Positions 1-28,339 of a stretch of 51,042 nt of DNA are shown here, one piece after another. The position numbers were made by a program, and so were the translations under genes. Below the pieces are notes generated by a model. The model did not search any database, was not told the origin of the DNA, and saw only the letters and a list, made by a program, of their open reading frames with translations. The stretch's first letter is position 1. Each line of letters begins with the position of its first letter. The stretch lies in IMG/VR virus record IMGVR_UViG_3300017420_000001, positions 1-51,042 of that record, one strand, 5' to 3'. The stretch comes from a virus.

Positions 1-123
1 ATGCGAAGCTGCGCGCCCGAGTTTTCCGCCGTGTAAATGTTGTTCCGGCGGATATATTCAAGCACGTTCAACGTACCGTCGCCCGCGCCCTGCGACTGCG
101 TGGCCCACCGGCGCATCAGGCGA
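1..123. repeat. Terminal direct repeat, copy 1 (identical to 50920..51042)
   Basis: Read directly: nt 1..123 (atgcgaagctgcgcgcccgag...gcatcaggcga) match nt 50920..51042 base for base. Confidence 0.97.
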
Positions 124-725
124 GGCGGGAGCGCGATCGTGTCGGCGGTCTCGACCTCGGCCGAGTTCGTGCGAACCGCATCGAGCGCATCGTTGACCAT
201 CGCCGCCGCCTGCGCAGGGGTGGCATCGGCGGAAGAAGCGTCCGCATCGAAACGCTGCACGGTCGGGTCGTTTACGAAGCCGGTCCAGCCCTTTTCGCTG
301 TTGCCGTCCTCGTCCTGGCCTTTCATGGCCTGCGCGTAGAGGAAGCGGTCAACGCCGTCGCCCGCTGCCAGTGCGAGCGTTGCCGAAAGCGGGATGCCAT
401 AGAGCGCGGCCTGATTGACCTCCTCCATGGTCCATTCCCAGCCGAGCATGACCTGCGCGAAGTCATGGCTGGCCTGATCGTGGCTGTGCGACACGAAGGG
501 AACGTCGGTCCCCTTGCCGGACACGAACTTGGCGCGCCCGGTGGTATCGGTCGTCATGAAGGTGGTGCCGATCGCCCACTCGTTGCCTTCGGTCACAACC
601 GGGACAATCGAGGCGTAATCGTAGCTGGGATACCGGCGCGCGTAAATCTGCGCTTCGATATTGCGACCCTGCGCGATAACGAACGGAAACGCCGTCTGCG
701 CGTCCTTGAAAGCCTGCATATTCAT
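1..725 (-). CDS. Major capsid protein, N-terminal part. The gene wraps the window junction and continues at 50919..50691.
   Basis: ATG at 725 (rc), MNMQAFKDAQTAFPFVIAQGRN..., open to the window edge. 725 nt + 229 nt = 954 nt in frame (317 aa). Sits after the scaffold and decoration genes. Resembles DUF2184-type HK97-fold capsids by eye. Confidence 0.8.
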   Translation of the reverse strand, partial: MNMQAFKDAQTAFPFVIAQGRNIEAQIYARRYPSYDYASIVPVVTEGNEWAIGTTFMTTDTTGRAKFVSGKGTDVPFVSHSHDQASHDFAQVMLGWEWTMEEVNQAALYGIPLSATLALAAGDGVDRFLYAQAMKGQDEDGNSEKGWTGFVNDPTVQRFDADASSADATPAQAAAMVNDALDAVRTNSAEVETADTIALPPRLMRRWATQSQGAGDGTLNVLEYIRRNNIYTAENSGAQLR

Positions 726-728
726 CCC

Positions 729-1199
729 TTATGCGCTCCGATGCTTGAGCGAGATTTCGACGATATCGCCATTGGCGCCGGTCGTGTCGAAGAACGCATC
801 CGGAATAACGGTGCCGCCCGTCGCGGTGTAGCGATTGGTCCCTGCATTGTAGGTCACGGCATCGCCGGGAGCGACCGCGCCGCCCGCCGTGACGAACATC
901 GTGCCATCGGTCATGAATGCGCCCGTGTAATTCTGCGGGTAGTAATCGGTCGCGCCGTTGACCGCATTGGCGGGCGGAACCGCCGGGGTCAGGACCGCGA
1001 GCCCGAGAAACTTGCTGCCCGTTGCGGCAATCTTGTGGTCGTTGCCCGCGCCAGCAACGCGGAAGCCCGGAGCGCCGAACCGGATGCCCTCGGCGTTCGA
1101 AACCGTGCGGCTGATCTGATTGTGCTTTTCCTCGTTCGCGATCTGGCCGGGGAAACCCTTGGCCGGACGGTCGCTATAGGTCGTCTGATAGGTAGCCAT
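729..1199 (-). CDS. Head decoration / cement-like protein (DUF2190-like)
   Basis: 156-aa G/A/T-rich protein between scaffold and capsid. Stop is 3 nt upstream of the capsid ATG. The family call rests on position and composition. Confidence 0.55.
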   Translation of the reverse strand: MATYQTTYSDRPAKGFPGQIANEEKHNQISRTVSNAEGIRFGAPGFRVAGAGNDHKIAATGSKFLGLAVLTPAVPPANAVNGATDYYPQNYTGAFMTDGTMFVTAGGAVAPGDAVTYNAGTNRYTATGGTVIPDAFFDTTGANGDIVEISLKHRSA

Positions 1200-1202
1200 C
1201 GG

Positions 1203-2315
1203 TTATGCGTCCGCCTTCAGGGGGTTGAACAGTCGATCAAGCATCGCGGTGCGGGCGTCGGACACGGCCTTGTCGGCTGCATCGTTAACCGGGGCGCTAT
1301 CGCGAAGCGCGTCGCGCAGCGGGTCCGCATCCTCGATCTTGGCGTCCTTGGTCAGGACCGCAAAGGCGAGCGCGAACTGGTCGGTGGTGTAGTCCTTCGC
1401 CGCATCGCCCATCTTGGCGGTCACGACGGCCTTGTGCGCGTCGGCTTCGGTCATTGCGTCGGTCACGGTTGCGCCCGCCGCCTTGGCCTTTGCCATCGTG
1501 GTGGCATACGAACGGGCGGCATCCGCCAGCTTGGCGGGCGTAATAGCCGCGTCGGCAAGAGCGGCATTCAGCCGCACAATTTCCGCGTCCTTCGCGACGA
1601 TCGCCGCGTCACGCTCGACAATGGTGGCGTCTCGCGCGACAACCTTGGCATCGGCATCGGCAAGCTGGCCCACAACCTTGTTAATCACGGCTTCCGCCGC
1701 GTCGGTGACTTCGACGGGGAGCCCGTCATAAGTGATAGTCTTGGTCCCCACTACGGGCTCCTTATCAGTGATGGGGGACCAATTGTCGCCCACACGGCAA
1801 CTATAGCCCGCCCGGCCCTTTTGCACTAGGGCGACATGATTTAGTGCCTGCGGACGCTGAATAGCATCGTATTCCTCGCCGCTATCGGTTACCCCCGCCG
1901 TCCATTCGATCTCGCAAGTATAGCCGCACGATACCTCGCGCTTGCCAGCCTCCAACTTGTCGATCACGGCTTGATCGGCAAACAGCAGCGGGACATAGAT
2001 AAGTCCGTTTGCCTCATCCTTGCGGATGCTGTCGCCCGTATAGCCCGCCGCCAAGTCTTTCCAGTTGGCGCTGTTGACATCGCTCGCGGGGTGGTCATCG
2101 GTGACGGGCTTGTGAGCGATCGAGCGCAGATAGCTGTCCGCAAACACCGCGTCGGGCGGGCGGTACATGCGAACCACGGGCATATCGGGTCGTCCGACCT
2201 CGCGGCCCGCGTAATCCTGAATGCCCGTGCGCGCGACCGGCACCTCTGCCACCTTGTAGCCATCGGCGGTGGTGCGGATTTCGCCCAGCTTGGCGTTGTC
2301 GAGAAAGCGCATCAT
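1203..2315 (-). CDS. Prohead scaffold/protease-like protein (DUF2213-like)
   Basis: 370 aa. The N-terminal globular domain (GIQDYAGREVG..., VSCGYTCE) is followed by an Ala/Asp/Lys-rich coiled-coil tail typical of scaffolds. Position is upstream of the capsid. Confidence 0.65.
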   Translation of the reverse strand: MMRFLDNAKLGEIRTTADGYKVAEVPVARTGIQDYAGREVGRPDMPVVRMYRPPDAVFADSYLRSIAHKPVTDDHPASDVNSANWKDLAAGYTGDSIRKDEANGLIYVPLLFADQAVIDKLEAGKREVSCGYTCEIEWTAGVTDSGEEYDAIQRPQALNHVALVQKGRAGYSCRVGDNWSPITDKEPVVGTKTITYDGLPVEVTDAAEAVINKVVGQLADADAKVVARDATIVERDAAIVAKDAEIVRLNAALADAAITPAKLADAARSYATTMAKAKAAGATVTDAMTEADAHKAVVTAKMGDAAKDYTTDQFALAFAVLTKDAKIEDADPLRDALRDSAPVNDAADKAVSDARTAMLDRLFNPLKADA

Positions 2316-2320
2316 ATCGC

Positions 2321-2349
2321 TTGCATGGTAGCGGGCGCGGGTGTATGGG
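2321..2349 (+). promoter_or_regulatory. Candidate sigma70-type promoter of the plus-strand PAPS-reductase moron
   Basis: TTGCAT (2321-2326), 17-nt spacer, TATGGG (2344-2349). Only 9 nt lie before the ATG at 2359, so the mRNA would be nearly leaderless. Confidence 0.3.
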
Positions 2350-2358
2350 GGTAGGGCT

Positions 2359-3165
2359 ATGCGATTTGTAATCTTTACCAGCTATGGCAACGATAGTTGC
2401 GCCCTCATTCAATGGTGCCATGAACAACAGCTAACCGATATTGCTTGTGTGTATTCCGATACCGGATGGGCGGCGGGCTGGTGGATGCAGCGCGTTGAGC
2501 GCATGGAGCGATGGGTTGCCGGCCTTGGCTTTACGCATCATCGCACTGAAAGCATCGGCTTTGTTGGTCTAGCGCGGCAAAAGAAAGCGTTTCCATCTAA
2601 TCGGTATCAGTGGTGCAGTGGCATCTTAAAGATTGAGCCGGGCGAGCGATGGCTTGAACAGAACGATCCCGACAAACGCGCCGTATGCCTTGTCGGCGTT
2701 CGCCGAGAAGAAAGCGAAGATCGTTCCGAGTTTCCGCGATTTCTGGCATCAAGCCCGTCGCACGGTGGGCGCGTCATGCTTGCACCTTGCGCTGATTGGA
2801 CGGAAGAAACGCGCAATGTGTTTTTAGAGCGCGCAAATATCGTTCCACTCAAACATAGAAGTATGGAATGCTCGCCTTGCATCAACGCTAGTCGCGGCGA
2901 TTTGATCGTTGCGGCGCAAGATGAGGAGCGCATCGCTGAAATTGAGGCACTAGAGATAGAATTAGGATTAGGTGGTGAATTAACCGCCAACGGCAAAACC
3001 AAGGGAGCCATGTTTCGCCCATCGAATAAGATGGGCGCCACGGGTATTCGCGAAGTGGTGGAATGGGCCAAGTCGGGGCGCGGCGGATATGGCAGCGGTC
3101 AAATGCGATTGTTTGATCCCGATCCTGGGCAAGCGGGGTGCTCGTCAGGGTGGTGTGGTATATAG
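2359..3165 (+). CDS. PAPS reductase / PP-loop ATPase family protein (DndC/CysH-like fold), paralogue 1
   Basis: The track ORF starts at GTG 2341; I prefer the ATG at 2359 (MRFVIFTSYGNDS). It has a degenerate PP-loop (SYGNDS), VGVRREES, and four C-terminal Cys (ECSPC, GCSSGWCG). It lies on the opposite strand to its neighbours and is visibly AT-richer. Confidence 0.75.
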   Translation: MRFVIFTSYGNDSCALIQWCHEQQLTDIACVYSDTGWAAGWWMQRVERMERWVAGLGFTHHRTESIGFVGLARQKKAFPSNRYQWCSGILKIEPGERWLEQNDPDKRAVCLVGVRREESEDRSEFPRFLASSPSHGGRVMLAPCADWTEETRNVFLERANIVPLKHRSMECSPCINASRGDLIVAAQDEERIAEIEALEIELGLGGELTANGKTKGAMFRPSNKMGATGIREVVEWAKSGRGGYGSGQMRLFDPDPGQAGCSSGWCGI

Positions 3166-3174
3166 GAGGATTGA

Positions 3175-3528
3175 ATGTTTATCAGCGAACCAGTTCAGAG
3201 TTACCCTGTCAGCATTTTTATTGGAGGACGTGCCAGCGACATTGAAGATCAATGCCGCACCTATTGCGACGAAGTTGGTTTGTGCGTTACATGTACGCCG
3301 ACTTGCTTTGTATATACCGATGGAGAGACGGAGGGGTATATTGTCGGATTGATTAACTATCCGCGCTTTCCTAGTACGCCAGAAGAGATTTGGGCGCACG
3401 CTGAAGCCTTGGCCGAACGGCTGCGGATCGAAGCCGACCAACAATCTTACACCATCCAGGCACCGGATAAGACGGTGTTTTATAGCCACAGAGAGCAAGA
3501 TAACGAAACGGCGACCACCCCGAAGTAG
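3175..3528 (+). CDS. Cys-rich hypothetical protein, partner of PAPS-reductase paralogue 1
   Basis: 117 aa, starting 10 nt after the upstream stop on the same strand. Carries a CRTYCDEVGLCVTCTPTC cluster. No family recognised. Confidence 0.6.
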   Translation: MFISEPVQSYPVSIFIGGRASDIEDQCRTYCDEVGLCVTCTPTCFVYTDGETEGYIVGLINYPRFPSTPEEIWAHAEALAERLRIEADQQSYTIQAPDKTVFYSHREQDNETATTPK

Positions 3529-3562
3529 CCGCCGCCTCAAACCTTACCATATCATGCTAACG

Positions 3563-3595
3563 GAAGCCCGCCCTAACCGGCGGGCTTTCCTATTC
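3563..3595. terminator. Bidirectional rho-independent terminator between convergent genes
   Basis: Stem gaagcccgcc (3563-3572) pairs with ggcgggcttt (3579-3588) around a 6-nt loop, and a T-rich tail follows on the plus strand. It lies between the stop at 3528 (+) and the stop at 3663 (-). Confidence 0.7.
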
Positions 3596-3662
3596 GGAAG
3601 TGTTGCGGATGGAGCGTCCTGGTTATTCGGATGCCCGTTCGCATGGTCGTTCTCCCGTGGTG

Positions 3663-4088
3663 TTACCCTAGTGCTTGCTCAAACGCACTGACAACCGATA
3701 CGGAACCCGCCGTCTGACGGATCGCAAAGTACCAGCCCGGCGGAATGGCAAGCGTGTAGCTGTTCGTCATGACCGTCGATAGCGATAGGCCCACCGTAAG
3801 CGCGCCGGTATTGGTGTTGGCATACTTGCCCATCACCGTGCCGCCCGTAGTTGCGATCGTCGCGGCGAGGCCAATCACGAGGTCCGCGCTGTTGGTCGCG
3901 CCGCCCGTTAGCGTTATGGTGGCCGTGCTGGTGAGCGTGACCGTAACCAACGCGCTCTTGCCCGTCACCGTAGGCCGGTAGGCCGTTCCAAGCGCCACCG
4001 TGCGGGCGGCAGGTTGCCCCACCAGCCCGTTGAAGCGGCTCGCCACAGTCTGCGCCAGTGAGCCGATGCGCTCGACTAGGCTAGCCAT
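3663..4088 (-). CDS. Fibre-like structural protein
   Basis: 141 aa, T/G/A/S-rich. The N-terminus MASLVERIGSLAQTVASRFNGL echoes the N-terminus of the upstream fibre gene. Its start abuts the upstream stop. Confidence 0.5.
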   Translation of the reverse strand: MASLVERIGSLAQTVASRFNGLVGQPAARTVALGTAYRPTVTGKSALVTVTLTSTATITLTGGATNSADLVIGLAATIATTGGTVMGKYANTNTGALTVGLSLSTVMTNSYTLAIPPGWYFAIRQTAGSVSVVSAFEQALG

Positions 4089-4619
4089 TTAGGCGAGCGC
4101 CGCGTTGAAGATGGCAACGAAGTCGGTATCCGGGTTGCCGATCTCCACCGAACCATAGGCGTCGATATTCGAGCGCGCGACCAGTCGCTGCGATGCGGTC
4201 AGGCTTTGTGCCGCGTCGAAGCGAACGCGGTTGCCAAGCGCGGCGGTCACGGTCGCGGCGTAGTTGGGATCATTGCCGAGGGCGTTTGCCAGTTCGGTCA
4301 GCGTGTCGAGCGCGCCCGGAGCCCCGTTCACTACGCCATCAACCGCCGCCTTGATGGCCGCATTGATCTTGGTGACGGAATAGGTCTGCGTGGTCGAGGT
4401 GGTCGTGCTATCGTTGATCGTGGCGCCGTTCGATGCCGTGGCAGCCGCGCCCACGGCAACGCCGCGCACCTCATTGACCGCGCCCACCAAGTCCTTGGCG
4501 GCGGTCAGCAGGGCGCTGTTATCGGCCGCATTGCCGTTGATGAGAACGTTCAGCGCCTTCGCCTTGGCGCCCATCCGGGTTGCAAGGTCGCTGATGCGGG
4601 TGACTAAAGTGACGGCCAT
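4089..4619 (-). CDS. Tail-fibre-repeat protein
   Basis: 176 aa containing GAPGALDTLTELANALGNDPNYAATV, a motif widely seen in phage tail-fibre and collar proteins. Confidence 0.7.
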   Translation of the reverse strand: MAVTLVTRISDLATRMGAKAKALNVLINGNAADNSALLTAAKDLVGAVNEVRGVAVGAAATASNGATINDSTTTSTTQTYSVTKINAAIKAAVDGVVNGAPGALDTLTELANALGNDPNYAATVTAALGNRVRFDAAQSLTASQRLVARSNIDAYGSVEIGNPDTDFVAIFNAALA

Positions 4620-4631
4620 TGCAATCCTTTC

Positions 4632-4961
4632 TTACGTGGCGGCGCTGTCGAATTGTAGGGCGAAGTCGGGCACGTCCGAAAGCGCGGTGTCGATCGCCGC
4701 CTGGATTTGTTCGGGGTCGGCGCCCAGCACCGGACGCCCCAATTCGCCGTCAAGGTAGCCCTTGGCATCGGCAGGGCTGGCGAACCCACTGCCATCGCGG
4801 CGGGCGTATCCGGTATATTCAAGTTGCGTCTGACGCACGCCACTAAGGGTCAGGATATGGATGCGGTCGCCATCCGCGATCGTGAACAGCGAGCGCGCCG
4901 GAAAGGGGCCAAGCCCGTCCATCTGGATTGCGTCGTTCTCGAACCATACCCGCGTTGTCAT
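4632..4961 (-). CDS. Hypothetical structural protein
   Basis: 109-aa ORF with a 4-nt overlap with the upstream gene, inside the fibre-like cluster. Confidence 0.55.
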   Translation of the reverse strand: MTTRVWFENDAIQMDGLGPFPARSLFTIADGDRIHILTLSGVRQTQLEYTGYARRDGSGFASPADAKGYLDGELGRPVLGADPEQIQAAIDTALSDVPDFALQFDSAAT

Positions 4962-5533
4962 GCCTCATACCCCTCGGGGCCAAACTCGGGGCTAAACTCG
5001 ATCAGGGTCATGGGCACGTTGGGCGTCAGGTAGAACGATGCCCCATCGCGCAGGAAGCCCGCGCGCACGGGGATTTGCAACAGGCTGGCAGTAAGCCGCT
5101 CTTCCTCGCCCGCGCTCACCAGCGCCTTGGTATCGGTAGCAATCTCGATCGTGGGCGTGCGCAGCGCCACATTGATGACCCCGCCCCGGATGTCGGCCTC
5201 GACGCGCATGTTGATGCGGATGCCGAACATATCGTACAGCGCGCGAGCGCGTACCAACTTGGTCGCGTTATCCCATGGGCGCCAATTCTCGAAAGGGCGG
5301 TTGAGGCGGGTGTTTGCGGCGCTGGCAGATAGGTCCAATTCGACCCGATGCGCAACGCCAGCGGCGAGGTAGGTCGTGATGCCAGCGGCAAAATTGTTAT
5401 CGGTGTAGTCGATGAACCCGCCGCCGTACTCGCTGAACTCGCGCGTCTGCGATGCGGTCAATTCGGCCGTGTCGGGCGCTTCCTGCGCGAAGCCCGCGCT
5501 ATCGCGAAACACCTTTAGGGGAGGAAGCGCCAT
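4958..5533 (-). CDS. Hypothetical structural protein (first gene of the fibre-like cluster)
   Basis: 191-aa ORF with coherent coding frame and no recognised motif. Confidence 0.55.
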   Translation of the reverse strand: MALPPLKVFRDSAGFAQEAPDTAELTASQTREFSEYGGGFIDYTDNNFAAGITTYLAAGVAHRVELDLSASAANTRLNRPFENWRPWDNATKLVRARALYDMFGIRINMRVEADIRGGVINVALRTPTIEIATDTKALVSAGEEERLTASLLQIPVRAGFLRDGASFYLTPNVPMTLIEFSPEFGPEGYEA

Positions 5534-5674
5534 GACCCAACAATAGCGGGCGGGAGCGGGTTTGTGGAGGGCGGATGGGGCCAGCTATAAGCTACTTAGT
5601 GCGGCACGTCGCGCCGCAAACCCCGGTACGCTACTTGTTACGGCTGAAAGGCTAAGTACCGCAACACAGCCCCC

Positions 5675-5797
5675 TTACATGCGCTTTTGCGGCTTGTCAA
5701 CAGGCTTAGGATTGGCCCGCTTCCATCCCTCAAACTCGGCTAGTGCGAGGGCTTGGGCGATATCGCGGCCCCAGAAGAAATTAAGTCCATTACTCAT
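5675..5797 (-). CDS. Small hypothetical protein (40 aa), below the ORF-track cutoff
   Basis: Its ATG at 5797 overlaps the TAA of the Mu F-like gene (TAATG). Translation: MSNGLNFFWGRDIAQALALAEFEGWKRANPKPVDKPQKRM. Confidence 0.35.
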   Translation of the reverse strand: MSNGLNFFWGRDIAQALALAEFEGWKRANPKPVDKPQKRM

Positions 5798-6696
5798 TAC
5801 GCAAATTCCTCCAAGATATCATCATCGTATTCGGACAGGTCTAGCACAGGCAAGCGCCTGCATCCACACCTAATTGGTATTCCTGGTCTGTCATCGGGCG
5901 GCACGTATTCCTCGCTTCCCGGCTTCGCCTTGTCGCTAAACGTCTTACCGTTTCGGGCTTTGTGCCAATCTCTGGGATGCTTCTTCCGACTATGCACCCA
6001 TTCGTATTTATTGCCCACGCCCGCTTGGTGAGACCGCTCGACACTAAGCGCCGTAGCGATTTTCTGCAATTCGACCGACGCGATCAACAGCGCCCGCTTG
6101 CGCCCGAAGCCCGTCACCTCGGCAAGTTGCTTGGCAACATCGCGCGCGGGCAGACGCTGGTTGAGCCCGTTGAACACCACTTGCGCCATCCGCTGCCGCT
6201 GTTGCGCGTTCACGTCCTTGATTAATTCTAGGTTTGCCAGGATGCGGCTTTGCACCGTCTCCGTTACATCGCCCGCGTAGAGCATCGTGTCGAGGTCAAC
6301 CCCCGTAGCGGATAGCACAGCGCCTCGCCACTTGCCGCGCTGCCACGCCTCGACCCCTAGCGCCCATGACGTAATGCCCGCCTCTAGCGTAATCACCAGC
6401 CGGTTGAACCAGCTAGTACCTTCCTCTAGGGTTGAGTTGATATCCTCCGCACTATCGGCTGCGCGAACACCTTTAATGCCGCGCGCCTCGTATCCATCAT
6501 TTGCTTGTGCAGCCTGCAACGTCCGCTCGTACTCGGCTAGCAGCTTAGCCCGCATTCCCGCCCAATGGTTGACGACTTGCATATACACGCGCAGCAAGCG
6601 CACGCGGTCCATGTCGCGCGGCTCGGGGTTGCCGATCACGAACCGTTTGCGCTTGGTGCCGGTGCGGGCGACTAGGAGGGGAAGGGGGATTTTCAT
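5797..6696 (-). CDS. Head morphogenesis protein (Mu gpF / SPP1 gp7 family)
   Basis: 299 aa directly downstream of the portal. The C-terminal region (WVHSRKKHPRDWHKARNGKTF...CGCRRLP) is typical of Mu F-like minor head proteins. Confidence 0.75.
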   Translation of the reverse strand: MKIPLPLLVARTGTKRKRFVIGNPEPRDMDRVRLLRVYMQVVNHWAGMRAKLLAEYERTLQAAQANDGYEARGIKGVRAADSAEDINSTLEEGTSWFNRLVITLEAGITSWALGVEAWQRGKWRGAVLSATGVDLDTMLYAGDVTETVQSRILANLELIKDVNAQQRQRMAQVVFNGLNQRLPARDVAKQLAEVTGFGRKRALLIASVELQKIATALSVERSHQAGVGNKYEWVHSRKKHPRDWHKARNGKTFSDKAKPGSEEYVPPDDRPGIPIRCGCRRLPVLDLSEYDDDILEEFA

Positions 6697-6872
6697 TCAG
6701 GATCATCTGGCAATTCAGTCCAATGCGTCGGCTTTGCATAGCCCGGCAAGTTAGTTCTATCCCCATAACTTGGAGCGACAAACTTAACCCATCCAATCCA
6801 TTCATTTGGATGATTAAACGCCACTAAAATTGCTCGGCCAGTGCTATCCGCCGTAGAAATATCTTGCCACAT
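6693..6872 (-). CDS. Small DUF551-like protein (59 aa), below the ORF-track cutoff
   Basis: GGAGGA RBS, ATG at 6872, and a stop that overlaps the next ATG (ATGA at 6693-6696). MWQDISTADSTGRAILVAF...PTHWTELPDDPE follows the W...PTHW..LP pattern of DUF551. Confidence 0.55.
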   Translation of the reverse strand: MWQDISTADSTGRAILVAFNHPNEWIGWVKFVAPSYGDRTNLPGYAKPTHWTELPDDPE

Positions 6873-6881
6873 AAATTCCTC

Positions 6882-8237
6882 CTATTCCTCAACACCCTCC
6901 CCCGTAACGCCCTCAAGCTGCGCAGTCAAGCGGGCTTCTTCCGTAGCCGCTGCCTCAGCAAGCGAAGGCGCTTCCGCCAATTCCGCCGCAATCTGCGCAA
7001 GGCCCTTGTCCAGGCCAGGGAACAGCCCGCTTTCGCTCATGGCAACGCCAAGGCTGTTCAGCACCGGCTCGCTAGGCATACCCGCGTTGATCGCCGCGCC
7101 CGCCGTTTCGGCTACCGTCTTTAGCGATGCGCCCTTCACGCTATCGCTTTCCTCGTAGAACGAACCGAACTCCCACCATGCGTCCGTCGTCACGCCTGCC
7201 GATGCCTTCAGGATCGGGTCAAGGCGGTCTAGCGCCGGGCGCAACTCGCTTTCGCGCCATCCGTCGAGCGTGCGATACCAATTCTGCATATCGCCGTCGC
7301 CCGTGGCGTTCATACCGTCGGGGCTCTTGCCTAGCAGCACGGTGGCGGGCATTGAACAGGCGCCCGCCAACACGCCTAGATAGCTGGCGATGACCTCGGG
7401 CATGCCAGCGTAGCTGACCTGATGCTGTTCCCACGTCTCGCCCGCATCGCGGATGATTGCGCGGTGGGTTGACTTGGCGGTATTTGCCAGCGTGAGGCGG
7501 CGCATGAGGCGCTGTTCGTACTCGGCGTTGACAAGCGAGGAAAGCATGTCGGGGATGCCGTACACATCGATGCTCGCTTCTTCGATCAGCGTCGCAAAAC
7601 CGTTTTGCGCGCTATCGGCGTTCTGGATGGCGTCGCGCACGATTTCCAAGATCGACACGCCCCAGAAAGCGCTGTGATCGCCATTGAAGCGCGGGGTGTA
7701 TTCGCCGCAGAATGGGATGACCCGGCTCGGGTGAATATCCACGAACGCGCTATCGCCCGCGACCTGATAGTATTTCGGGCACCCGAAATTCTCGGACGCC
7801 GGATCGCGCTCGATCTCGCCCACGCCGATCTCATGGCGGCTCATGACGTGGAGATATTGCAGGCTGTTCGGCCCCAGCGCCTCCACATTAAGCGGCTGGT
7901 TCGGCGTGCCCTGGTTGACGCCAATGACCATGACCCCGCCGCCCATGCGGCCTAGGCGCAAGGCTTCCTCCAGCTTCGCCCACAGCCGCACCTTGCGTTC
8001 CAGTTCCTCTAGCGCTTCGATTGAGCCCTCCTTCGTCTGCCAATCGCGGGTGGGACGGGTCATCTCGGCGGCGGGCAAATCCACGATCTTGCGAGCGGCC
8101 CACGAGGACCGATACATGGCATCGATCTGTTGCCAATCGAGGTGCCGCGCGACGTAATGCTGGCCCATGCGCTTATCGGCGCTGGTTCCGGCGCCGGAAA
8201 CGACGTTAGCGAGGCCATCGTAGAGGGATAGGGTCAT
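6882..8237 (-). CDS. Portal protein (DUF1073-type)
   Basis: 451 aa between TerL and the Mu F-like gene. The N-terminus LANVVSGAGTSADKR...YRSSWAARKIVD is typical of DUF1073 portals. Confidence 0.8.
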   Translation of the reverse strand: MTLSLYDGLANVVSGAGTSADKRMGQHYVARHLDWQQIDAMYRSSWAARKIVDLPAAEMTRPTRDWQTKEGSIEALEELERKVRLWAKLEEALRLGRMGGGVMVIGVNQGTPNQPLNVEALGPNSLQYLHVMSRHEIGVGEIERDPASENFGCPKYYQVAGDSAFVDIHPSRVIPFCGEYTPRFNGDHSAFWGVSILEIVRDAIQNADSAQNGFATLIEEASIDVYGIPDMLSSLVNAEYEQRLMRRLTLANTAKSTHRAIIRDAGETWEQHQVSYAGMPEVIASYLGVLAGACSMPATVLLGKSPDGMNATGDGDMQNWYRTLDGWRESELRPALDRLDPILKASAGVTTDAWWEFGSFYEESDSVKGASLKTVAETAGAAINAGMPSEPVLNSLGVAMSESGLFPGLDKGLAQIAAELAEAPSLAEAAATEEARLTAQLEGVTGEGVEE

Positions 8238-12259: not shown

Positions 12260-12595
12260 ATGGTTGATCGTATCGGTAAACGCGTCGTCGTATGGCTCCC
12301 ACAGGAATTGATTGACGCGATTGACGATCGCCGCGAATGGCGCACTACATCGGATTTCATCCGCAACACGCTGCTAGACAGCTTGATGGGCAAGGCAAAG
12401 CCTAAGGCCGCATCGGCACAACAACCGAAACCCGAACCGCTATCAGCGGCCGAGTTCTGGCGTATTGCATACATAATTGAAAGCGATGAAGTCTACTGGA
12501 AGCAAGCCCAACGCGGTTATGACGACGAACGGGCTTTCATCGACGCCATGTCATCCAACGCTGTTTTTATCGCGGCTCAAGCCGCCAACGCATAA
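12260..12595 (+). CDS. Ribbon-helix-helix (CopG/Arc/MetJ-type) DNA-binding protein
   Basis: The N-terminus KRVVVWLPQELIDAIDDRREWRTTSDFIRNTLL is a classic RHH beta-alpha-alpha. There is no SD, and TGTGATAAAT ends 8 nt before the ATG. Confidence 0.7.
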   Translation: MVDRIGKRVVVWLPQELIDAIDDRREWRTTSDFIRNTLLDSLMGKAKPKAASAQQPKPEPLSAAEFWRIAYIIESDEVYWKQAQRGYDDERAFIDAMSSNAVFIAAQAANA

Positions 12596-14835
12596 TACTT
12601 AACAACCGGCCTGCCCCGTCCGCTTTCCGCTGTCGTCTTGGTGTGACGAATAAGTCCGCTTTCTTCCAGATCATGCAATATGTCCTCACGCTCGCGCTTG
12701 GTCATTTGCTGGAACCGGCGCCCCAATTCCGATAGCCCGATGCCTTCCGATCCGGCCATCTCGATACGGGCGAGAATGCGCTTGACCTTGGCCTCCTGAT
12801 CGTTCTCGCTGATATTGCCAGCCGCCTTGACCATGAACTCGCGCACCGAACGCTCGCTTACCGCCCACCCCCATTCCATATCATGAGCGGTAAGAACGGG
12901 CTTGCCGGGGTTGTTCGTAACCGCCCGCACCAATGACAGCTTCATGGCGTTTTCGGCGCTACGGCGCACGAATGGGCGCATGTCGGGCTCGACCTCGCTT
13001 TCCATCCGATATTGCCGCATCCGCAATTCGTATTCCATATCGTCGGCGGCATCGTCGGCGTATGGCACCTCGTAGGGCTTCGGGCTAACCGAGGCTCCGT
13101 TACCCATCGGAAAGGCGATATGCCCATCAGCGCCCCGCATACACGCCTTCACGGCCTCGACCAAAGCATCCGGGTAAATGGCTCGCTTCAAACGCCGTGG
13201 CGGGGGCTTGTCCTCAATCGTGTCGGGCAGCAAGATAAAGCGTGGCAACAGCCCGTCGCTGATGCTGCTATGCGTCAGCTTCTCCCAAAACGCTTGCGGA
13301 TTGCTCACCCCGTAGAACCCCAGGCATGGGCGATTGATGATCGTAGTGGGCCGCTCTTTGCTGTTAGCATACATACCGCCCTTGAATATCGACTGCGAAG
13401 CCGAATACATCTTGAGCAGGACCGTAATGGCCTCTTTGAGATTGCCGCGCGGGTCTTGGATGGCCTGGATCAGCTTGCCGATTTCGTCGGCTGGGATGTA
13501 GAGCGTGGGCGATGCCTCGATCGCGGACATGATGCCTCGCGCCGATACGATATCGCCGCCCACCATGCGGGCGCCTTCTTCGCCCGCCAGCATCAACACC
13601 TGCCCTGGCGCATTGACGGGCAAGTCCTTACCCGATCCCGATGGGCTTAGCCCCACGATATAAAGGTTGCTCATCAGCCCCGATGGCGTCTGATAGCGCC
13701 TGCCCATCGCGGTGCCGAACAATGCCAGCGCGGCCCCCAACGCCAACTCCGGACGCGGGCTGGGGGCATAGGTCAGGATCGTCTCGACCATCAGCCGCAT
13801 CGGGCCGGATAGCCCTTCGCGCCAATCGGGCGTCGTAACCGGCGCAACCTCTTTTTGAGGCAATGCCAGCGCGGTCACATCGACCTCGGGAATGGGCACC
13901 TCCTCGCCCCTGGCGCCACCGATTGCCCGTTCGCACGCGCGGCGCGGATCGGCTTGATCGAGTAGGTGGGCGCTTACCTTGTTGGCCGGATTGAGCAACA
14001 GCCCCGCCATATCGCTATCGGACAGGTTGGCGCGCACCATCGCGCAGGCCGCGTGATAGACCCATTGCGAGCGATCGGACCCGGCAGGCTTCTCCACCGC
14101 GCGGCGTACGGGATGGAATGGGGTGAACGCGAAGTCGTCGCACGTTAGCAGCCGTACGTCGCCCACGGTAGCCGCAATGCGCTGCACCGCTTCGGCCGGT
14201 TCTTCGGGCTCGGGGAAGAATGCGGCCAGCGTGGCGGGTTCGTAGGTTTCGCCGGTATACTCCATCAAGATCGAAGCCATCGCGGGCTTGCGCCCCATAG
14301 CAGCCTTCTTCGCGGTCGGATGATTGACCCCGCCCGGCACGCGGAATAGCCGGTCGATGTTCCAGCACGCATCCGCCCCGAACATGGTTCGCACTTGCTG
14401 ATTGATGCGCTCGATCGCGGCTAGATTTTGGCTATCCTCGATCGCCCACAACGCTTGCAAGCCATTACCGCTGTCAATCACAATCGTGGGTGGATGATCG
14501 AGCCGTTCCATCGTTTCCATGACGCTGGCTTTATCAAACAGGCTGTTATCCTTGGGCGGGTCAATATCGACGTGAACCCAGCGCGCTGACGCGATATCCC
14601 GCTTAGCGGGCTTTTGGTTGAAGCCGTCGCGCACCCTATTGACCGTCCAGTACACGTTGCTGGTGCGGTTTTCTTCCATGGTCCATGCAACCGCCGCATC
14701 TACGTCGGCGCCGAAATAGCGGGTTCCTCGCACCACTTGAGCGGGGCTGATCGAGACAAGGTGTATCTGATCCAGATGCCCGAAGAAACGGGCGGCGCAA
14801 TCGGCGTCGAAGGCTTGTGCGTTTATGCGTGCCAT
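12577..14835 (-). CDS. Replication protein: RepB'-like primase N-domain fused to a P-loop (DUF3987/D5-like) helicase and a C-terminal wHTH
   Basis: 752 aa. Motifs seen: WVHVDIDPP and VIDSGNGLQALW (primase-like), Walker A GLSPSGSGKD, and a C-terminal winged-helix-like tail. The 3' end overlaps the RHH gene by 19 nt (convergent). Confidence 0.7.
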   Translation of the reverse strand: MARINAQAFDADCAARFFGHLDQIHLVSISPAQVVRGTRYFGADVDAAVAWTMEENRTSNVYWTVNRVRDGFNQKPAKRDIASARWVHVDIDPPKDNSLFDKASVMETMERLDHPPTIVIDSGNGLQALWAIEDSQNLAAIERINQQVRTMFGADACWNIDRLFRVPGGVNHPTAKKAAMGRKPAMASILMEYTGETYEPATLAAFFPEPEEPAEAVQRIAATVGDVRLLTCDDFAFTPFHPVRRAVEKPAGSDRSQWVYHAACAMVRANLSDSDMAGLLLNPANKVSAHLLDQADPRRACERAIGGARGEEVPIPEVDVTALALPQKEVAPVTTPDWREGLSGPMRLMVETILTYAPSPRPELALGAALALFGTAMGRRYQTPSGLMSNLYIVGLSPSGSGKDLPVNAPGQVLMLAGEEGARMVGGDIVSARGIMSAIEASPTLYIPADEIGKLIQAIQDPRGNLKEAITVLLKMYSASQSIFKGGMYANSKERPTTIINRPCLGFYGVSNPQAFWEKLTHSSISDGLLPRFILLPDTIEDKPPPRRLKRAIYPDALVEAVKACMRGADGHIAFPMGNGASVSPKPYEVPYADDAADDMEYELRMRQYRMESEVEPDMRPFVRRSAENAMKLSLVRAVTNNPGKPVLTAHDMEWGWAVSERSVREFMVKAAGNISENDQEAKVKRILARIEMAGSEGIGLSELGRRFQQMTKREREDILHDLEESGLIRHTKTTAESGRGRPVVKYYALAA

Positions 14836-15183
14836 TTACACGATCTCCCTAACTTCGACGCCCGCCGCCCGCGCGCGGCAAACCATATCAGCAGTTCCCC
14901 GCCCGCCTGGGAATGCCACTACGAGGTCAGGTCGCCCTTCGTCTAGCATGCGTTGGTTCCGGAGAGGACCGGCCGCTCTACCATACTTGCGCCAATCGGC
15001 GAGATGTGTTTCAATTTCCATCCCATGCTGGCACTCAGCCCATTTGCGGCACCACATGTCAGCTCCGGTAGCCCCGCCCTCAATCAACGTTGAAAACGAG
15101 GTGCGCTCACGTATACCGTCCATCGTCCGCCATATCGTACCGTGATCGGCATAATCCCGCCCTCCGCATATCAAAACTCGCAT
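14836..15183 (-). CDS. SLOG-superfamily protein (DUF2493 / YspA-like)
   Basis: I prefer the ATG at 15183 (MRVLICGGRDY...GGATGAD...AFPGGRGT), with a GGAGGA RBS. Its stop abuts the primase ATG. Confidence 0.7.
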   Translation of the reverse strand: MRVLICGGRDYADHGTIWRTMDGIRERTSFSTLIEGGATGADMWCRKWAECQHGMEIETHLADWRKYGRAAGPLRNQRMLDEGRPDLVVAFPGGRGTADMVCRARAAGVEVREIV

Positions 15184-15192
15184 CGCATCCTC

Positions 15193-15230
15193 CAAAAAAT
15201 AAACCCGCCACGCGCTTAGCACGGGCGGGC
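15193..15230 (-). terminator. Rho-independent terminator-like hairpin (minus strand)
   Basis: GC-rich hairpin at 15204-15229 (cccgcc...ggcggg with inner pairs), followed on the minus strand by TTTATTTTTT (15203-15194). Confidence 0.6.
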
Positions 15231-15253
15231 CGGTTAGTCGATAATGATCGTCG

Positions 15254-15406
15254 CTATTCCGCTTGCTTCAAGCGTTCACGCGCCTCGGGTCCGCAATCCG
15301 CGCACCATCGTTCGCGCCCATCGGGCAGGCGGATAGCGGTAAAACCGGTAAAGCCCTTGTCATCGGGCGGGGCCTCGCGAAAGCCGTCGTTGTCGTATTT
15401 AGTCAT
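15254..15406 (-). CDS. Small hypothetical protein (50 aa), below the ORF-track cutoff
   Basis: ATG at 15406. Translation: MTKYDNDGFREAPPDDKGFTGFTAIRLPDGRERWCADCGPEARERLKQAE. Fills the gap between 15414 and the terminator. Confidence 0.35.
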   Translation of the reverse strand: MTKYDNDGFREAPPDDKGFTGFTAIRLPDGRERWCADCGPEARERLKQAE

Positions 15407-15413
15407 GGGGCAC

Positions 15414-16346
15414 CTAGCGGGGCTGGAGGGCGACTCGGAGAGCGTCTAGGGGGGTAGCTCCCCGCCCTATGATCTCGCCCTTGACGCTGCCTCGCCGTAT
15501 CTCCCACCAGCCGTTCGGCTCAACGCCGTTGAACAGGATCAGGTTATCGAGTTCAGCAAGCTCGGCTAGCAGTTCAGCCGCCGCCCGCCCATCATCCGCG
15601 GCGGTGGGGTTGGCGCATGGGGTGGCGAGGACGGTGCGGGGCTGTAGAGCCGCAATGCTGGCCCATGCGAAAGCGGCGGATCGACCAGCCTGGACAGACG
15701 ATACGATCAGGGTGGTTTCGATCTGTTCGCTCTCGCCATCCGGATCGAGCGCAACGTCCGTAGGCGTGTCGACGTTGAGGTGCATGAACAGATGCCCCCA
15801 AGGGGTATCCCATTCCTCTTCCGGACAGCCGCAATCCGGGTCGGGCTGGCTTCGGATCAGAACACACCCGGCAGGCACTCCCTCCCCCGCTTGCGCACCC
15901 GTTCCCCCGTGGGTGGCGAGGGCGGCTTCACCAGCAGACAGCGCCTTTTCGCCGCCCCACATGCTGAAAAACGGGTCGTGAGCGAACGTCGTTGCATCGC
16001 GCCACGCCGTCGATCTGCTCATGTCGATCGCACGCCAGATGAAGGCGGCATCGTCAGCGTCGGTGCCCTTACGAAGGCCAGTGTGGATACCCTCGCCAAG
16101 CAGAGCCGCGCCGTCTTCCTTGAACATCCGGATGAACTCGACGCACAGGCGCAACGCCTTCTCCACCCCAGCGGCGTCGGGATCGGTGCGCTGGCGATGC
16201 GCGGCGATGTAGGCGGTGGTTAGCCGCTGAGCCTCGGCGTCGGGTAAGTGCTGCGCATAGTAATTGAAGACGATTGACCGCAACGATGGCTCGCGCGTTG
16301 CCGCGCCAAGGTCCGGTTCAAAGTCATCGGATGTATCATCAATCAT
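15414..16346 (-). CDS. Hypothetical protein downstream of the ECF sigma factor
   Basis: 310-aa acidic protein with no motif and no TM segment recognised. Confidence 0.55.
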   Translation of the reverse strand: MIDDTSDDFEPDLGAATREPSLRSIVFNYYAQHLPDAEAQRLTTAYIAAHRQRTDPDAAGVEKALRLCVEFIRMFKEDGAALLGEGIHTGLRKGTDADDAAFIWRAIDMSRSTAWRDATTFAHDPFFSMWGGEKALSAGEAALATHGGTGAQAGEGVPAGCVLIRSQPDPDCGCPEEEWDTPWGHLFMHLNVDTPTDVALDPDGESEQIETTLIVSSVQAGRSAAFAWASIAALQPRTVLATPCANPTAADDGRAAAELLAELAELDNLILFNGVEPNGWWEIRRGSVKGEIIGRGATPLDALRVALQPR

Positions 16347-16364
16347 ATCAGCTATCCTCCTATA

Positions 16365-16910
16365 TCAATCCGCTATACGCCAAGCGCGTCGGATAATCTC
16401 GACCCCCCGACTTAGCATCGTTTCCACCGTAGAGGTGGCCACGCCCCTTGCTTTCGCTATCTCGCTAGGAAAGTCAAGCGTTGTTGCGAGCCGCATGGTG
16501 TTTTTCATTGCATCCGATACCGGGCGCCCGCTAGGCTTTGTCATACTCTCAATTGCGCTCGATAATGCCGCCCGCATGACCGCACCCTCCTGACCGCCAT
16601 CGGCTTCGAGTTCGGGGGATGCGCTTTCTTCTACCTCGATCGGTCCCGGCATCCGCGCTTTGGCGCCATCCTGGCGAATATAGCGAACCGGGTTGCAGCG
16701 ATGCCACCACGATCGCTTTAGCGTGCGCACCAGCCACCCCCAAACGCCGAACGATAAGTCGATGCCCTCACGCCCACGCCACAACGCCAACCATGCATCC
16801 TGGGCTATATCTTCGGCGTCGGCGCTACCATTTGTCAATCGAGCGGAAACCGCAGCCAACGCGGACGCGTGGCGGCGGTAAGCGGCGTCAAAGGCAATTG
16901 CGTCGAGCAT
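16365..16910 (-). CDS. ECF-type sigma-70 family sigma factor
   Basis: 181 aa. Region 2 is DAEDIAQDAWLALWRG. Region 4.2 HTH is SEIAKARGVATSTVETMLSRGVEIIRRA. Confidence 0.8.
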   Translation of the reverse strand: MLDAIAFDAAYRRHASALAAVSARLTNGSADAEDIAQDAWLALWRGREGIDLSFGVWGWLVRTLKRSWWHRCNPVRYIRQDGAKARMPGPIEVEESASPELEADGGQEGAVMRAALSSAIESMTKPSGRPVSDAMKNTMRLATTLDFPSEIAKARGVATSTVETMLSRGVEIIRRAWRIAD

Positions 16911-19660: not shown

Positions 19661-19741
19661 CGAAACTCCCTCCAAATTAAAACTACGTTGCCCACAAAGA
19701 ACAGCGCGCTTCCGACCGCAAAAAGTATTGCTGGCATTGCG

Positions 19742-20674: not shown

Positions 20675-20682
20675 ACAATCTC

Positions 20683-21424: not shown

Positions 21425-21443
21425 ATCGGGGCTAAACTATGTG

Positions 21444-26491: not shown

Positions 26492-26694
26492 CACACCTTC
26501 TCCAAAATGCCGCACCGGCCCATTGCGGGGCCTTCGCCCGCGAAGTCGGTCGGAACCCATCGCCCGCTCCGCACCTCGTCGGGATGCACCACCGCCATTA
26601 GCAGCGTAGTGCCCGGCTTATGCGGCGCTTGTTGATACCATCCCTGCCCGGCCGTGGGGCGAAACTTGCGGCCTGTCTTTGCGCATGTAAGCAT
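26491..26694 (-). CDS. Small hypothetical protein (67 aa)
   Basis: Its ATG at 26694 overlaps the PAPS-reductase stop (TAATG). Starts MLTCAKTGRKFRP... Confidence 0.45.
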   Translation of the reverse strand: MLTCAKTGRKFRPTAGQGWYQQAPHKPGTTLLMAVVHPDEVRSGRWVPTDFAGEGPAMGRCGILEKV

Positions 26695-27911
26695 TATGAT
26701 ACCTCCATATTTCCCGCCGCGCGGGCTTTCTTGATAACCAGATACTTGGCGTACGCTTCGGACTTGGGTTGCGTCAACCCGAGCCCCTTGCACCACCAAT
26801 CATTACGCAACAAAACCTTGCACATCCGCCGCCAGGATGGCGCCCATTGCTTATCCTCCAAAACTTTGGGCGCTTCATCGGGAATAGCATCATAGCCGCG
26901 CCCGCGCCAGCCCTTGATGAACGAGCGGAACCTCTTGATGTAGTGATCTCGCGTTTGCTTGGGCATACTCGATAGCAGCAGGTTTGTGAACGACTTCCAG
27001 CTATGCCCCTCGGGCTTGGTGATTTTTTGATACCCCATGACGTTGCCGCTTTCACCTACGTAAAGCGCGCCACTGTTCGCGCCGTTGACGCGGGCAATCA
27101 GCTTGAACCACGTTTCGGGCTCTAGGATGTGGTACAGCCACAGTCCCTTGCGCTGGTCGTCGCCGTAAGGCTGGCAAAGCCGCTGTTGACTAATCGGCAC
27201 CCCGGCCTTGTGCATAAGGTCATAGATCGCGTTGTGCGGCTTGTCGGGAAACGCAGCGTGGAAGCGCCAGATATCCTCGGTTCGCCAATCATAGATTGGA
27301 TAGACGTTGAACACGTCCGGCGCCACCTCGGTTGTCCACCGCTTGCCGCCGTGCATGGTTTTGTCGAATACCGCGATCGTCCGAAAACGGTTGATACTTT
27401 CATCCGCGCGGATACCCACAAAACCGCCCGTTAGATGCCCATCCGCGTACCACTCTCCAAACAGCACCACGAATTCCTCAAACTCCATACCGGGCTGGAA
27501 AAACGGATAGTGGGCAAGATCGGTCACAGCGTTGCGCGGAAACTCACGCACCCAAATGTCACGCTTGTCAGGCTCCCAACATTGCCAGCGCGGCTCGTAA
27601 TTCGTTACCGCGTTGCGGAGCGACATGGGCAGGCATACCCAATGCAAGTCGATCCACAGCGCATACATCGCGGTCATTTCCTCAATATGCGCGATGGTGG
27701 CGGCGTACTGCGCTTCCAGGTCCACGATAAGCACGCCCACACGCCGGCCGCGCCGCATTGCTTCCTCTAGGACTAGGTGCAGCATGACGCTGCTATCCTT
27801 GCCGCCAGAAAAGCTAACGTAAACGCGCTCCATATTGTCGAACACGTATGCAATCCGCTCGCGCGCCGCATCCAACACGTTCTGTTTGCGGTATTTCTTT
27901 AGCTTGCTCAT
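26694..27911 (-). CDS. PAPS reductase / PP-loop ATPase family protein, IbrA-like (paralogue 2)
   Basis: I prefer the ATG at 27911 (MSKLKKYRKQN). It has a canonical PP-loop (VSFSGGKDSSV) and a long C-terminal extension as in IbrA/DUF3440 proteins. 405 aa. Confidence 0.8.
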   Translation of the reverse strand: MSKLKKYRKQNVLDAARERIAYVFDNMERVYVSFSGGKDSSVMLHLVLEEAMRRGRRVGVLIVDLEAQYAATIAHIEEMTAMYALWIDLHWVCLPMSLRNAVTNYEPRWQCWEPDKRDIWVREFPRNAVTDLAHYPFFQPGMEFEEFVVLFGEWYADGHLTGGFVGIRADESINRFRTIAVFDKTMHGGKRWTTEVAPDVFNVYPIYDWRTEDIWRFHAAFPDKPHNAIYDLMHKAGVPISQQRLCQPYGDDQRKGLWLYHILEPETWFKLIARVNGANSGALYVGESGNVMGYQKITKPEGHSWKSFTNLLLSSMPKQTRDHYIKRFRSFIKGWRGRGYDAIPDEAPKVLEDKQWAPSWRRMCKVLLRNDWWCKGLGLTQPKSEAYAKYLVIKKARAAGNMEVS

Positions 27912-28339
27912 CAATAAAGGTCCGCTTCGGTTTTGCTCTGCGCTTCCTCCAGGCTTAGCGCGGGCTCGCCACGCGATGCAAGCCAAATGTTGAGGTAGCG
28001 CAACGCCGCCTCGTTAGCCGCCAGCTTCTCCCCTTCGTCAAGTTGATTGAACCCGCCGCGAAACTGCGATGGCACGCCCGTTGCGTAGCACATTGCCGCT
28101 TGCCCGAGCCAGGCAATCCGGTTCATACGCTCGTTGCTAAGGTAGTGCTCGCAACTGTTCGGCCAATCCCGCAACAGGCTTTCCATCGTTGCTTCAAATA
28201 GCGGAATGTTGCGTAGAAACTTGCCGTATAGGCGTCGGCATTCGTCTTCGTCTAGCGACTTGTCACGCGGCTTGCTATTGTAGAAACCCGCCGGAAAGCA
28301 CTCCCACCGATCCCATGTGTGATAAACTCGCTGCATCAC
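27911..28339 (-). CDS. Hypothetical protein inserted between the ParB-like and PAPS-reductase genes
   Basis: 142 aa with overlaps at both ends (ATGA and TGATG). W/C/Y-rich N-terminus (YHTWDRWECFPAGFY). No family recognised. Confidence 0.6.
   Translation of the reverse strand: MMQRVYHTWDRWECFPAGFYNSKPRDKSLDEDECRRLYGKFLRNIPLFEATMESLLRDWPNSCEHYLSNERMNRIAWLGQAAMCYATGVPSQFRGGFNQLDEGEKLAANEAALRYLNIWLASRGEPALSLEEAQSKTEADLY

Follow-up and report, generated by a model that had tools for sequence, protein, structure and literature searches.

A counter-oriented pair of PAPS-reductase-like and SAM-lyase-like genes in the head-gene block of a phage: a possible mobile counter-defense or DNA-modification cassette

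The DNA analyzed here, referred to throughout as the window, is a stretch of 51,042 nucleotides comprising positions 1 to 51,042 of the IMG/VR virus record IMGVR_UViG_3300017420_000001, and its element of interest is a cassette of two plus-strand genes lodged in a block of minus-strand head genes. Gene 1 encodes a protein of the 3'-phosphoadenosine-5'-phosphosulfate (PAPS) reductase fold, and gene 2 a small protein whose predicted fold resembles that of S-adenosylmethionine (SAM) lyases; the coordinates of these and all other features are collected in Table 1. Both open reading frames (ORFs) lie exactly where an earlier note on this DNA had placed them, and the public contig record (51,060 bp) predicts the same two genes. 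Nearly all the other genes of the window are on the minus strand, and Pfam and PHROGs scans identified every gene flanking the cassette as a minus-strand head gene, in keeping with the position described in that note. We read the pair as a mobile counter-defense or DNA-modification (epigenetic) unit, to which we attach a probability of about 45%.

The base composition of the cassette is clearly foreign. Its G+C content (GC) of 0.527 falls in the lowest 2.4% of equal-sized stretches, and the G+C content at third codon positions (GC3) is 0.53 for both genes versus 0.75-0.81 in the six nearest head genes, so that the AT-richness relative to the flanks that had been remarked on is indeed strong. 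A megablast search with positions 1-8000 of the window against GenBank phages gave no match. We read the cassette as a recent, horizontally acquired two-gene accessory unit.

A contig related to the window phage (L029; 57% identical in the Mu-F protein and 53% in the portal protein) carries a cassette at the equivalent site, likewise counter-oriented, but with a PAPS-like gene of a different clade (243 amino acids) and a small protein that is 50% identical to that of gene 2. Positions 3481-3655 of the window match L029 at 78.7% identity by blastn, and identity is 80-90% over the last nine codons of gene 2 and the roughly 130 bp that follow; from these alignments, it looks as though one cassette was exchanged for another against a conserved 3' flank. 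The picture is one of a fixed, counter-oriented accessory slot in the head-gene block where one version of the pair is exchanged for another. In L008, which is more distantly related, a PAPS-like gene (69% identical) has no partner, lies between the portal and Mu-F genes, and is oriented as the head genes are. A relative with an empty site was sought using the protease gene and a pattern search, and no relatives were found. PAPS-like superfamily genes were also observed near a GpA-type terminase (L006/L007, 5001-5876), between portal and Mu-F (L008/L009, 5001-5840) and, in Vibrio phage 14E30.1, directly after the large terminase subunit (L167, 1549-2301). As such genes are found repeatedly beside packaging or head genes, the head-module location in the window is not unique.

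Only 9 bp separate gene 1 from gene 2 and, because an AGGAGG Shine-Dalgarno sequence spans the stop codon of the former and is 5 nt from the ATG of the latter, their joint expression is probable; the arrangement suggests that they are probably co-transcribed with coupled translation. The divergent gap between the start of the protease gene (2315) and the ATG of gene 1 (2359) is only 43 bp. The letters of a promoter proposed there are present, but it fails a sigma-70 consensus scan of positions 1900-4200, which found no sites versus 1.6 expected by chance. At the other end of the cassette, the hairpin AAGCCCGCC-CTAACC-GGCGGGCTT has a fold z of -2.4 and is retained in L029 via one compensatory G-C to C-G change. 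It had been put forward as a terminator: the hairpin is present and conserved, but the terminator scan made no call at 3564-3587 because the T-tail is weak or T-poor on both strands. Forced antisense read-through by late transcripts, which had also been argued for, is likewise not established; given a conserved hairpin between convergent genes, the head genes may simply be two transcription units, and the protease-to-capsid genes may have a promoter of their own.

The product of gene 1 matched PF01507 over residues 4-161 (44.8 bits against a cut-off of 22.5; E = 1.8e-11) and was assigned to phrog_424 in the PHROGs search. An AlphaFold2 model based on 28 homologues had a predicted local distance difference test (pLDDT) score of 85.8, with low confidence over the tail, residues 251-268. 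Foldseek aligned this model, at E = 1e-7 to 1e-5, with CysH (6vpu and 1sur), adenosine-5'-phosphosulfate (APS) reductase (7lhr and 2goy), FAD synthase, and TtuA; the alignments include only the N-terminal 170-190 residues, over which identity to the CysH structures is 12-18%. By its model, the gene 1 protein is thus of the PAPS-reductase (adenine-nucleotide alpha-hydrolase) fold. There are 310 detectable homologues, of which many lie on contigs of phage size and some are encoded by rhizobial chromosomes. Across the 28 homologues, the PP-loop SYGNDS (residues 8-13), C86, C110, C171-x2-C174, and C261-x4-C266 are invariant. Relative to SGGxDS, the loop keeps its Ser, Gly, Asp, and Ser, and the first Gly is replaced by Tyr in 28/28. 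Invariance across the clade marks SYGNDS as a fixed, clade-specific variant and not a decaying PP-loop; of the earlier description as a PAPS-reductase fold with a degenerate loop, the first part therefore holds and the second does not. The cysteines described as CSPC...CSSGWC are present and as invariant as C86 and C110; the four C-terminal cysteines most likely hold an iron-sulfur (Fe-S) cluster.

The usual database name for such proteins is "PAPS reductase," and gene 1 could on that basis be taken for an auxiliary metabolic CysH that boosts host sulfur assimilation, as the generic PF01507 match and the presence of CysH structures at the top of the Foldseek list would allow. The curated equivalog models of NCBIfam argue otherwise: gene 1 scored 28.4 with PRK02090 (cut-off 154), 16.8 with TIGR02057 (cut-off 254.2), and 26.3 with TIGR02055 (cut-off 235.3), all far below what is demanded of an assimilatory CysH or APS reductase. 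The C-terminal catalytic motif of CysH is ECG[LI]H. Gene 1 lacks it and ends in GCSSGWCGI, the family ending being G-C-x-x-G-W/Y-C-G/x; structural similarity to CysH is confined to the N-terminal portion at the low identity given above, and the profile of the gene 1 family matched no PDB sequence. CysH-type metabolism was rejected on the curated cut-offs and the motif, and we consider it scarcely credible.

The only PADLOC matches of gene 1 were to BrxP (4e-11), SspD (2e-9), and DndC, all of them partial: model positions 1-119 of 277 for SspD and 135-284 of 779 for BrxP. With the DndC model TIGR03183, whose cut-off is 290.4 bits, gene 1 scored 20 bits, and the match covered residues 78-124 only. 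A full-length relationship emerged by hhalign with Orf84 of phage 186 (probability 97.7%, E = 1.6e-12, 247 columns, including the CxPC and the C-terminal cysteine pair), and a weaker one with lambda NinC (probability 33%, the N-terminal 163 columns, including the CxxC). These profile alignments make gene 1 homologous to Orf84 from end to end and distantly related to NinC. The commonest neighbors of the gene 1 clade are DNA methyltransferases, followed by helicases and replication genes.

Those neighbors bear on whether gene 1 could be an RNA-directed PP-loop/Fe-S enzyme, that is, a TtuA/TtcA-like tRNA thiolase or base modifier that tunes host or phage tRNA. A PP-loop combined with cysteines fits that class of enzyme, TtuA with its [4Fe-4S] cluster was among the structural matches (E about 1e-5, template modeling (TM) score 0.5), and the phage does have a tRNA-Trp gene. 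The TtuA alignments have, however, a root-mean-square deviation of about 9 Å, there is no TtuB-like carrier with a C-terminal GG (the C-termini of the partner vary), the clade neighbors are genes of DNA methylation, unwinding, and replication, and the sole experimental link known for any phage PAPS domain concerns a DNA defense system (10.1101/2021.05.05.442762). An RNA substrate is accordingly judged very unlikely.

No family had been recognized for the partner protein, but the gene 2 product belongs to phrog_4848 (E = 6e-35), a family without an assigned function. This was the only PHROG found at E up to 10, and Pfam, NCBIfam, and PADLOC gave no match to the 117-residue protein, even at permissive thresholds over 30 members. 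A word-indexed search found 548 homologues, and an exhaustive HMMER search 944 clusters at 50% identity, the members being, with few exceptions, stand-alone proteins 105-145 amino acids long. Conservation was tabulated over 191 distinct sequences. The dense cysteine cluster earlier ascribed to this protein is not a family feature: C37 is invariant (190/190), C31 is present in 91% and C27 in 82%, but C40 in only 12%, and C44 is rare. At C27 and C31, the replacements are A, L, V, or I, a pattern expected of buried helix positions. As only C37 is invariant, a metal or Fe-S cysteine cluster in gene 2 was rejected. Strong conservation was found at T39, Y47, G54, G58, and Q89-x-S91, and the N61-Y-P-R-F65 loop is invariant.

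The AlphaFold2 model of gene 2 (pLDDT 89.9) has a ferredoxin-like fold of the order beta-alpha-beta-beta-alpha-beta, and all ten PDB matches obtained with Foldseek at E < 1e-3 were SAM or SAM-AMP lyases, with TM scores of 0.62-0.68. The best was the SAM lyase Svi3-3 (E = 2e-5; TM 0.66-0.68 over the full length); CutA and PII proteins ranked next, at E > 3e-3. The Svi3-3 sequence was taken from the eLife supplement, its family was gathered, and profiles were aligned by hhalign. The best alignment of the two families (probability 48%, E = 1.9e-4, 96 columns) is marginal alone, but its register agrees with the fold match and sets conserved residues on functional residues of Svi3-3; with the single Svi3-3 sequence the probability was 4%, in the same register as in the later profile-profile runs, and with T3 SAMase 1%. 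In Svi3-3, S50 binds adenosine, Y58 stacks on the sulfonium, E69 is catalytic, and Q104 belongs to the B-loop (PMC7877911, PMC12255297). T39 (Thr in 185 and Ser in 6 of the 191 sequences) aligns with S50, Y47 (Tyr in 173, Phe in 17) with Y58, and column 52 (Glu in 147/191, 77%) with E69, whereas Q89 (190/191), position 90 (Q, E, or D), and S91 (188/191) align with the B-loop Q104-E105-S106. The modeled gene 2 protein is therefore SAM-lyase-like in fold and in most of its ligand-binding residues, with a putative enzymatic activity. Two other candidates were discarded: ASCH/EOLA1, which had a single weak PDB profile match (E = 0.2), and a TusA/TtuB-like sulfur carrier, for which there was no such fold match and the C-termini are variable.

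Linkage of the two families was determined in 84 loci, 80 of them IMG/VR loci baited with the small protein alone and the others L002-L005; all 84 were searched with an iterated PAPS-like profile. A PAPS-like gene was present in 49/84 loci, corresponding to 40/70 distinct small-protein sequences, and was nearly always the immediate same-strand neighbor, usually upstream and in a few cases downstream; this adjacency is far above chance. Junctions are as tight as a 4-bp overlap in L004 and a 0-bp gap in L029. The neighboring PAPS-like proteins fall into two large clades (26 and 17 loci) and several small ones, with PP-loops of SGGKDS, SGGRTS, SCGAAS, or SYGNDS; 39/40 of them end in Cx(1-6)C, and at least 30/40 have an internal CxxC. 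The pair recurs in numerous unrelated phages, with hosts in both Proteobacteria and Bacteroidota, and is represented by ORF-111 and ORF-112 in the isolated jumbo Tenacibaculum phage PTm5, whose host belongs to the latter. The gene 2 product of the window has 86% identity to a small protein whose PAPS-like neighbor was barely found by the window-clade profile (E = 0.0018). The two genes thus differ in history, and the repeated independent joining of the two families favors a functional link over shared descent.

Alternatively, the two could be independent accessory genes, functionally unlinked, that gather in the same moron or anti-defense hot spots. Both families do occur alone, partner swapping shows that the genes have different histories, and PAPS-like genes have been reported in variable, anti-defense-rich phage regions (PMC13551039). 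Mere co-residence nevertheless sits poorly with an immediate adjacency of 57%, far above the expectation for rare genes (three PAPS-like queries matched only 4, 24, and 155 of 50,697 phage records), with a nearly constant order and strand and tight junctions, and with recurrence of the pair in phages of both host phyla and across two or more large PAPS clades and several small ones. We therefore think independence unlikely. One Vibrio-phage PAPS query matched 541 phage records, lambda NinC included.

Where the small gene lacks a PAPS-like neighbor, other surroundings were observed. In large lytic phages (loci among L035-L086), a peptide-deformylase-like gene is directly downstream in about 14 loci, and 15 loci have an unnamed gene of about 200 amino acids immediately upstream; in N4-like roseophages, the helicase and DNA polymerase genes flank the small gene.

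DndC, SspD, and BrxP are PP-loop enzymes of DNA phosphorothioation (PMC10853773, PMC12914056); the BrxP of bacteriophage exclusion (BREX) type 4 makes phosphorothioate (PMC12914056), and DndC is reported to bind SAM (PMC10853773). After a PAPS-domain gene of a Vibrio phage and its neighbor were moved into a sensitive phage, a Dnd-carrying host was infected (Piel et al. 2022, 10.1101/2021.05.05.442762), and phage PAPS reductases have been proposed as anti-defense candidates (PMC13551039). SAM lyases defeat type I restriction and BREX. As a counter-defense or DNA-modification pair, the cassette would have been imported horizontally, probably as one expression unit, into a fixed slot in the head block of this phage group. 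Gene 1, of the Orf84/NinC kind, has a fixed variant of the nucleotide-binding loop, putative Fe-S cysteines, and the architecture of DndC, SspD, and BrxP. Gene 2 would form a trimer whose subunit interfaces bind SAM or a related adenosyl-sulfonium compound, which it probably cleaves, thereby removing or handling the SAM needed by type I and type III restriction, by BREX and, reportedly, by DndC. The target of gene 1 would be the sulfur chemistry of the DNA backbone or the host Dnd, Ssp, or BREX-4 machinery, and the phage DNA would escape restriction. A hitherto undescribed, self-contained phage system made up of both proteins that writes a SAM- or sulfur-dependent DNA mark, or that erases or mimics the host phosphorothioate mark, is rather unlikely. 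The earlier note had leaned toward a modification or anti-defense activity; the comparative evidence and the linkage of the pair support that direction, but the partner is neither a conserved cysteine-rich or Fe-S protein nor a dedicated one.

Several points weigh against the counter-defense or modification interpretation. Function has been measured for no member of either family, and Orf84 of phage 186 is annotated "unknown function; not essential." PII-like folds are common, and the SAM-lyase assignment was made from the predicted fold and a marginal profile alignment; no sequence search joined the gene 2 family to SAM lyases. The window protein has Thr at column 52, that of the catalytic Glu, between E51 and E53, and 19/191 family members have no Glu at positions 51-53; Svi3-3 G56, which packs against the ribose, aligns with column 45, which is Tyr or Phe. 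The SYGNDS variant may be unsuited to ATP pyrophosphatase chemistry, and there are no DndA/D/E-like genes next to the cassette. As for the pairing, only 5/70 loci baited with the PAPS clade of the window contain the small gene, always directly downstream, and the closest homologues of gene 1 (78%, 69%, and 56% identical) are without it. Conversely, 30/70 distinct small-protein loci have no PAPS-like gene, and in the complete N4-like genome DSS3phi2, which lacks any PAPS-like gene, the small gene is flanked by those for the helicase and the DNA polymerase. With each gene so often found without the other, an obligate complex is unlikely.

The same distribution bears on the main alternative, a single new enzyme system in which each protein would be a subunit or a step and which would install a modification on phage DNA or RNA. 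Gene 2 would then encode not a free-standing, SAM-depleting lyase but a PII-like protein that delivers, senses, or processes an adenosyl or sulfur compound on behalf of its PP-loop/Fe-S partner. Tight same-strand adjacency with overlapping or near-zero junctions in several PAPS clades, and replacement of the pair as a unit at the same site in L029, are what such coupling predicts. The Glu at the catalytic column is not strict, as if lyase activity were not the point, and the SAM binding reported for DndC (PMC10853773) would fit as well. The C27/C31/C37 triad was observed in 34/40 sequences with an adjacent PAPS-like gene versus 13/30 without one, counts that are uncorrected for relatedness, and this excess may hint that the small protein interacts with the Fe-S enzyme in a cysteine-dependent way. 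On the other hand, the small protein is alone in DSS3phi2 and in the 30/70 loci mentioned, 65/70 loci of the window PAPS clade are without the small gene, and no fusion of the two families was found among the 150 best representatives of the gene 2 family, the ten longest of which contain no Pfam domain. We hold the coupled enzyme to be somewhat unlikely and retain the counter-defense or modification pair as the preferred reading.

The predicted importance of the cassette lies in what these genes are usually taken to be. PAPS-reductase-like genes are among the commonest phage "auxiliary" genes and are usually read as sulfur metabolism, although none has a demonstrated activity; the gene 2 family, at about 944 clusters, is wholly unannotated. 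The analysis yields testable hypotheses: a mobile pair, a non-CysH, phosphorothioation-like enzyme, and a partner of SAM-lyase-type fold. If they are true, there would be a new family of phage SAM-handling enzymes and a first biochemical function for the widespread NinC/Orf84 family and for phrog_4848, and the routine metabolic annotation of NinC-type proteins would be corrected.

Elsewhere in the window, the second PAPS-family gene that had been pointed out is present, with a DUF3440 domain in its product. A gene for a 221-residue ParB_N protein (phrog_2159) is two genes upstream, with an unassigned 142-residue ORF between them, and the whole minus-strand region spans 26694-29001. This PAPS_reduct-DUF3440/ParB_N pair presumably resembles IbrA/IbrB (YbdN/YbdM) of Escherichia coli prophages, and with this second system, one phage has two distinct PAPS-like modules. 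The replication block (12577-26345, minus strand) encodes a primase-type protein of 752 amino acids, an SNF2/DEAD helicase with a zinc ribbon, a Cas4-domain exonuclease, an HNH endonuclease, a DUF669 protein, an AAA_24 ATPase, and the DNA polymerase III beta clamp (25266-26345); among the window genes scanned, there was none for a DNA methyltransferase. Further plus-strand ORFs at 30168-30876, 23932-24414, and 49098-49637 could be additional counter-oriented accessory genes; the 136-residue ORF at 30168-30578 has no Pfam match. On the portal side of the cassette, three small proteins are encoded between the Mu-F-like and the 176-residue fiber-like genes. The fiber-like and 141-residue products, encoded between the Mu-F and protease genes, may be head fibers or decoration proteins rather than tail parts.

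Table 1. Positions of the cassette, its candidate expression signals, and other features of the window.
Feature	Position	Strand	Remarks
Candidate promoter TTGCAT-N17-TATGGG	2321..2349	+	proposed earlier; sequence present, candidate only
Gene 1	2359..3165	+	268 aa; ORF list, PF01507, phrog_424
Shine-Dalgarno sequence AGGAGG	3164..3169	+	overlaps gene 1 stop codon; 5 nt before gene 2 ATG
Gene 2	3175..3528	+	117 aa; ORF list, phrog_4848
Conserved 3' end of cassette	3502..3655	+	last 9 codons (…DNETATTPK) and ~130 bp downstream, including the hairpin; common to L029
G+C-rich hairpin	3564..3587	strand-neutral	9-bp stem; candidate terminator between convergent genes
Cement protein	729-1199	-	other side of cassette from the portal gene
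DUF2213 protease/scaffold	1203-2315	-	other side of cassette from the portal gene
141-aa protein	3663-4088	-	no match
Fiber-like 176-aa protein	4089-4619	-	phrog_4757 and many "tail fiber" PHROG families
Mu-F-like protein	5797-6696	-	head block, portal side
Portal	6882-8237	-	head block, one side of cassette
Second PAPS-family protein	26694..27986	-	430 aa; PAPS_reduct and DUF3440; phrog_2302
tRNA-Trp (anticodon CCA)	33616-33689	+	only Rfam match in window; amid minus-strand genes

Proteins of the NinC type and proteins with a SAM-lyase fold are each of a known kind, and what is new here is their joining as an exchangeable cassette. Our literature search found no description of a PAPS-like and SAM-lyase-like pair, but it left most subscription journals uncovered, and an earlier description is possible. 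The homology of gene 1 extends along the whole of Orf84 and along the N-terminal part of NinC, and all three are accessory genes of about 270-335 codons in variable phage regions. Orf84 has SGGKDS where the window clade has SYGNDS; Orf84 and NinC lie in early or nin regions, whereas gene 1 is in the head block on the opposite strand, and neither phage 186 nor lambda has a phrog_4848-type gene beside them. With DndC, SspD, and BrxP, gene 1 shares the PAPS-reductase fold, a loop of the S-x-G-x-D-S type, and cysteines suited to a [4Fe-4S] cluster, but its matches to them are partial and far below family thresholds, it is shorter than BrxP (268 residues versus about 779 profile positions), and the cassette is flanked by head genes, with no DndA/D/E, SspA/B/C, or BREX partner genes nearby. 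The Vibrio anti-Dnd cassette is likewise an exchangeable accessory cassette in which a phage PAPS-domain gene (p0018) adjoins a small gene (p0019); p0018, however, encodes a PAPS-Dam fusion of 479 amino acids, whereas gene 1 has a single PF01507 domain and no methylase. Finally, the SAM lyases (Svi3-3 and T3 SAMase) and SAM-AMP lyases provide the best structural matches of gene 2, have the same beta-alpha-beta-beta-alpha-beta order and, like gene 2, are small stand-alone phage proteins; in the profile alignment with Svi3-3, the gene 2 family retains the Q-x-S of the B-loop, the Tyr and the Ser/Thr and, in most members, a Glu. Gene 2 departs from them in lacking similarity by sequence search, in a catalytic-column Glu that is not strict (Thr in the window protein), in a beta2-beta3 loop that is only a tight turn, and in an invariant N-Y-P-R-F loop and Cys37 that are the family's own.

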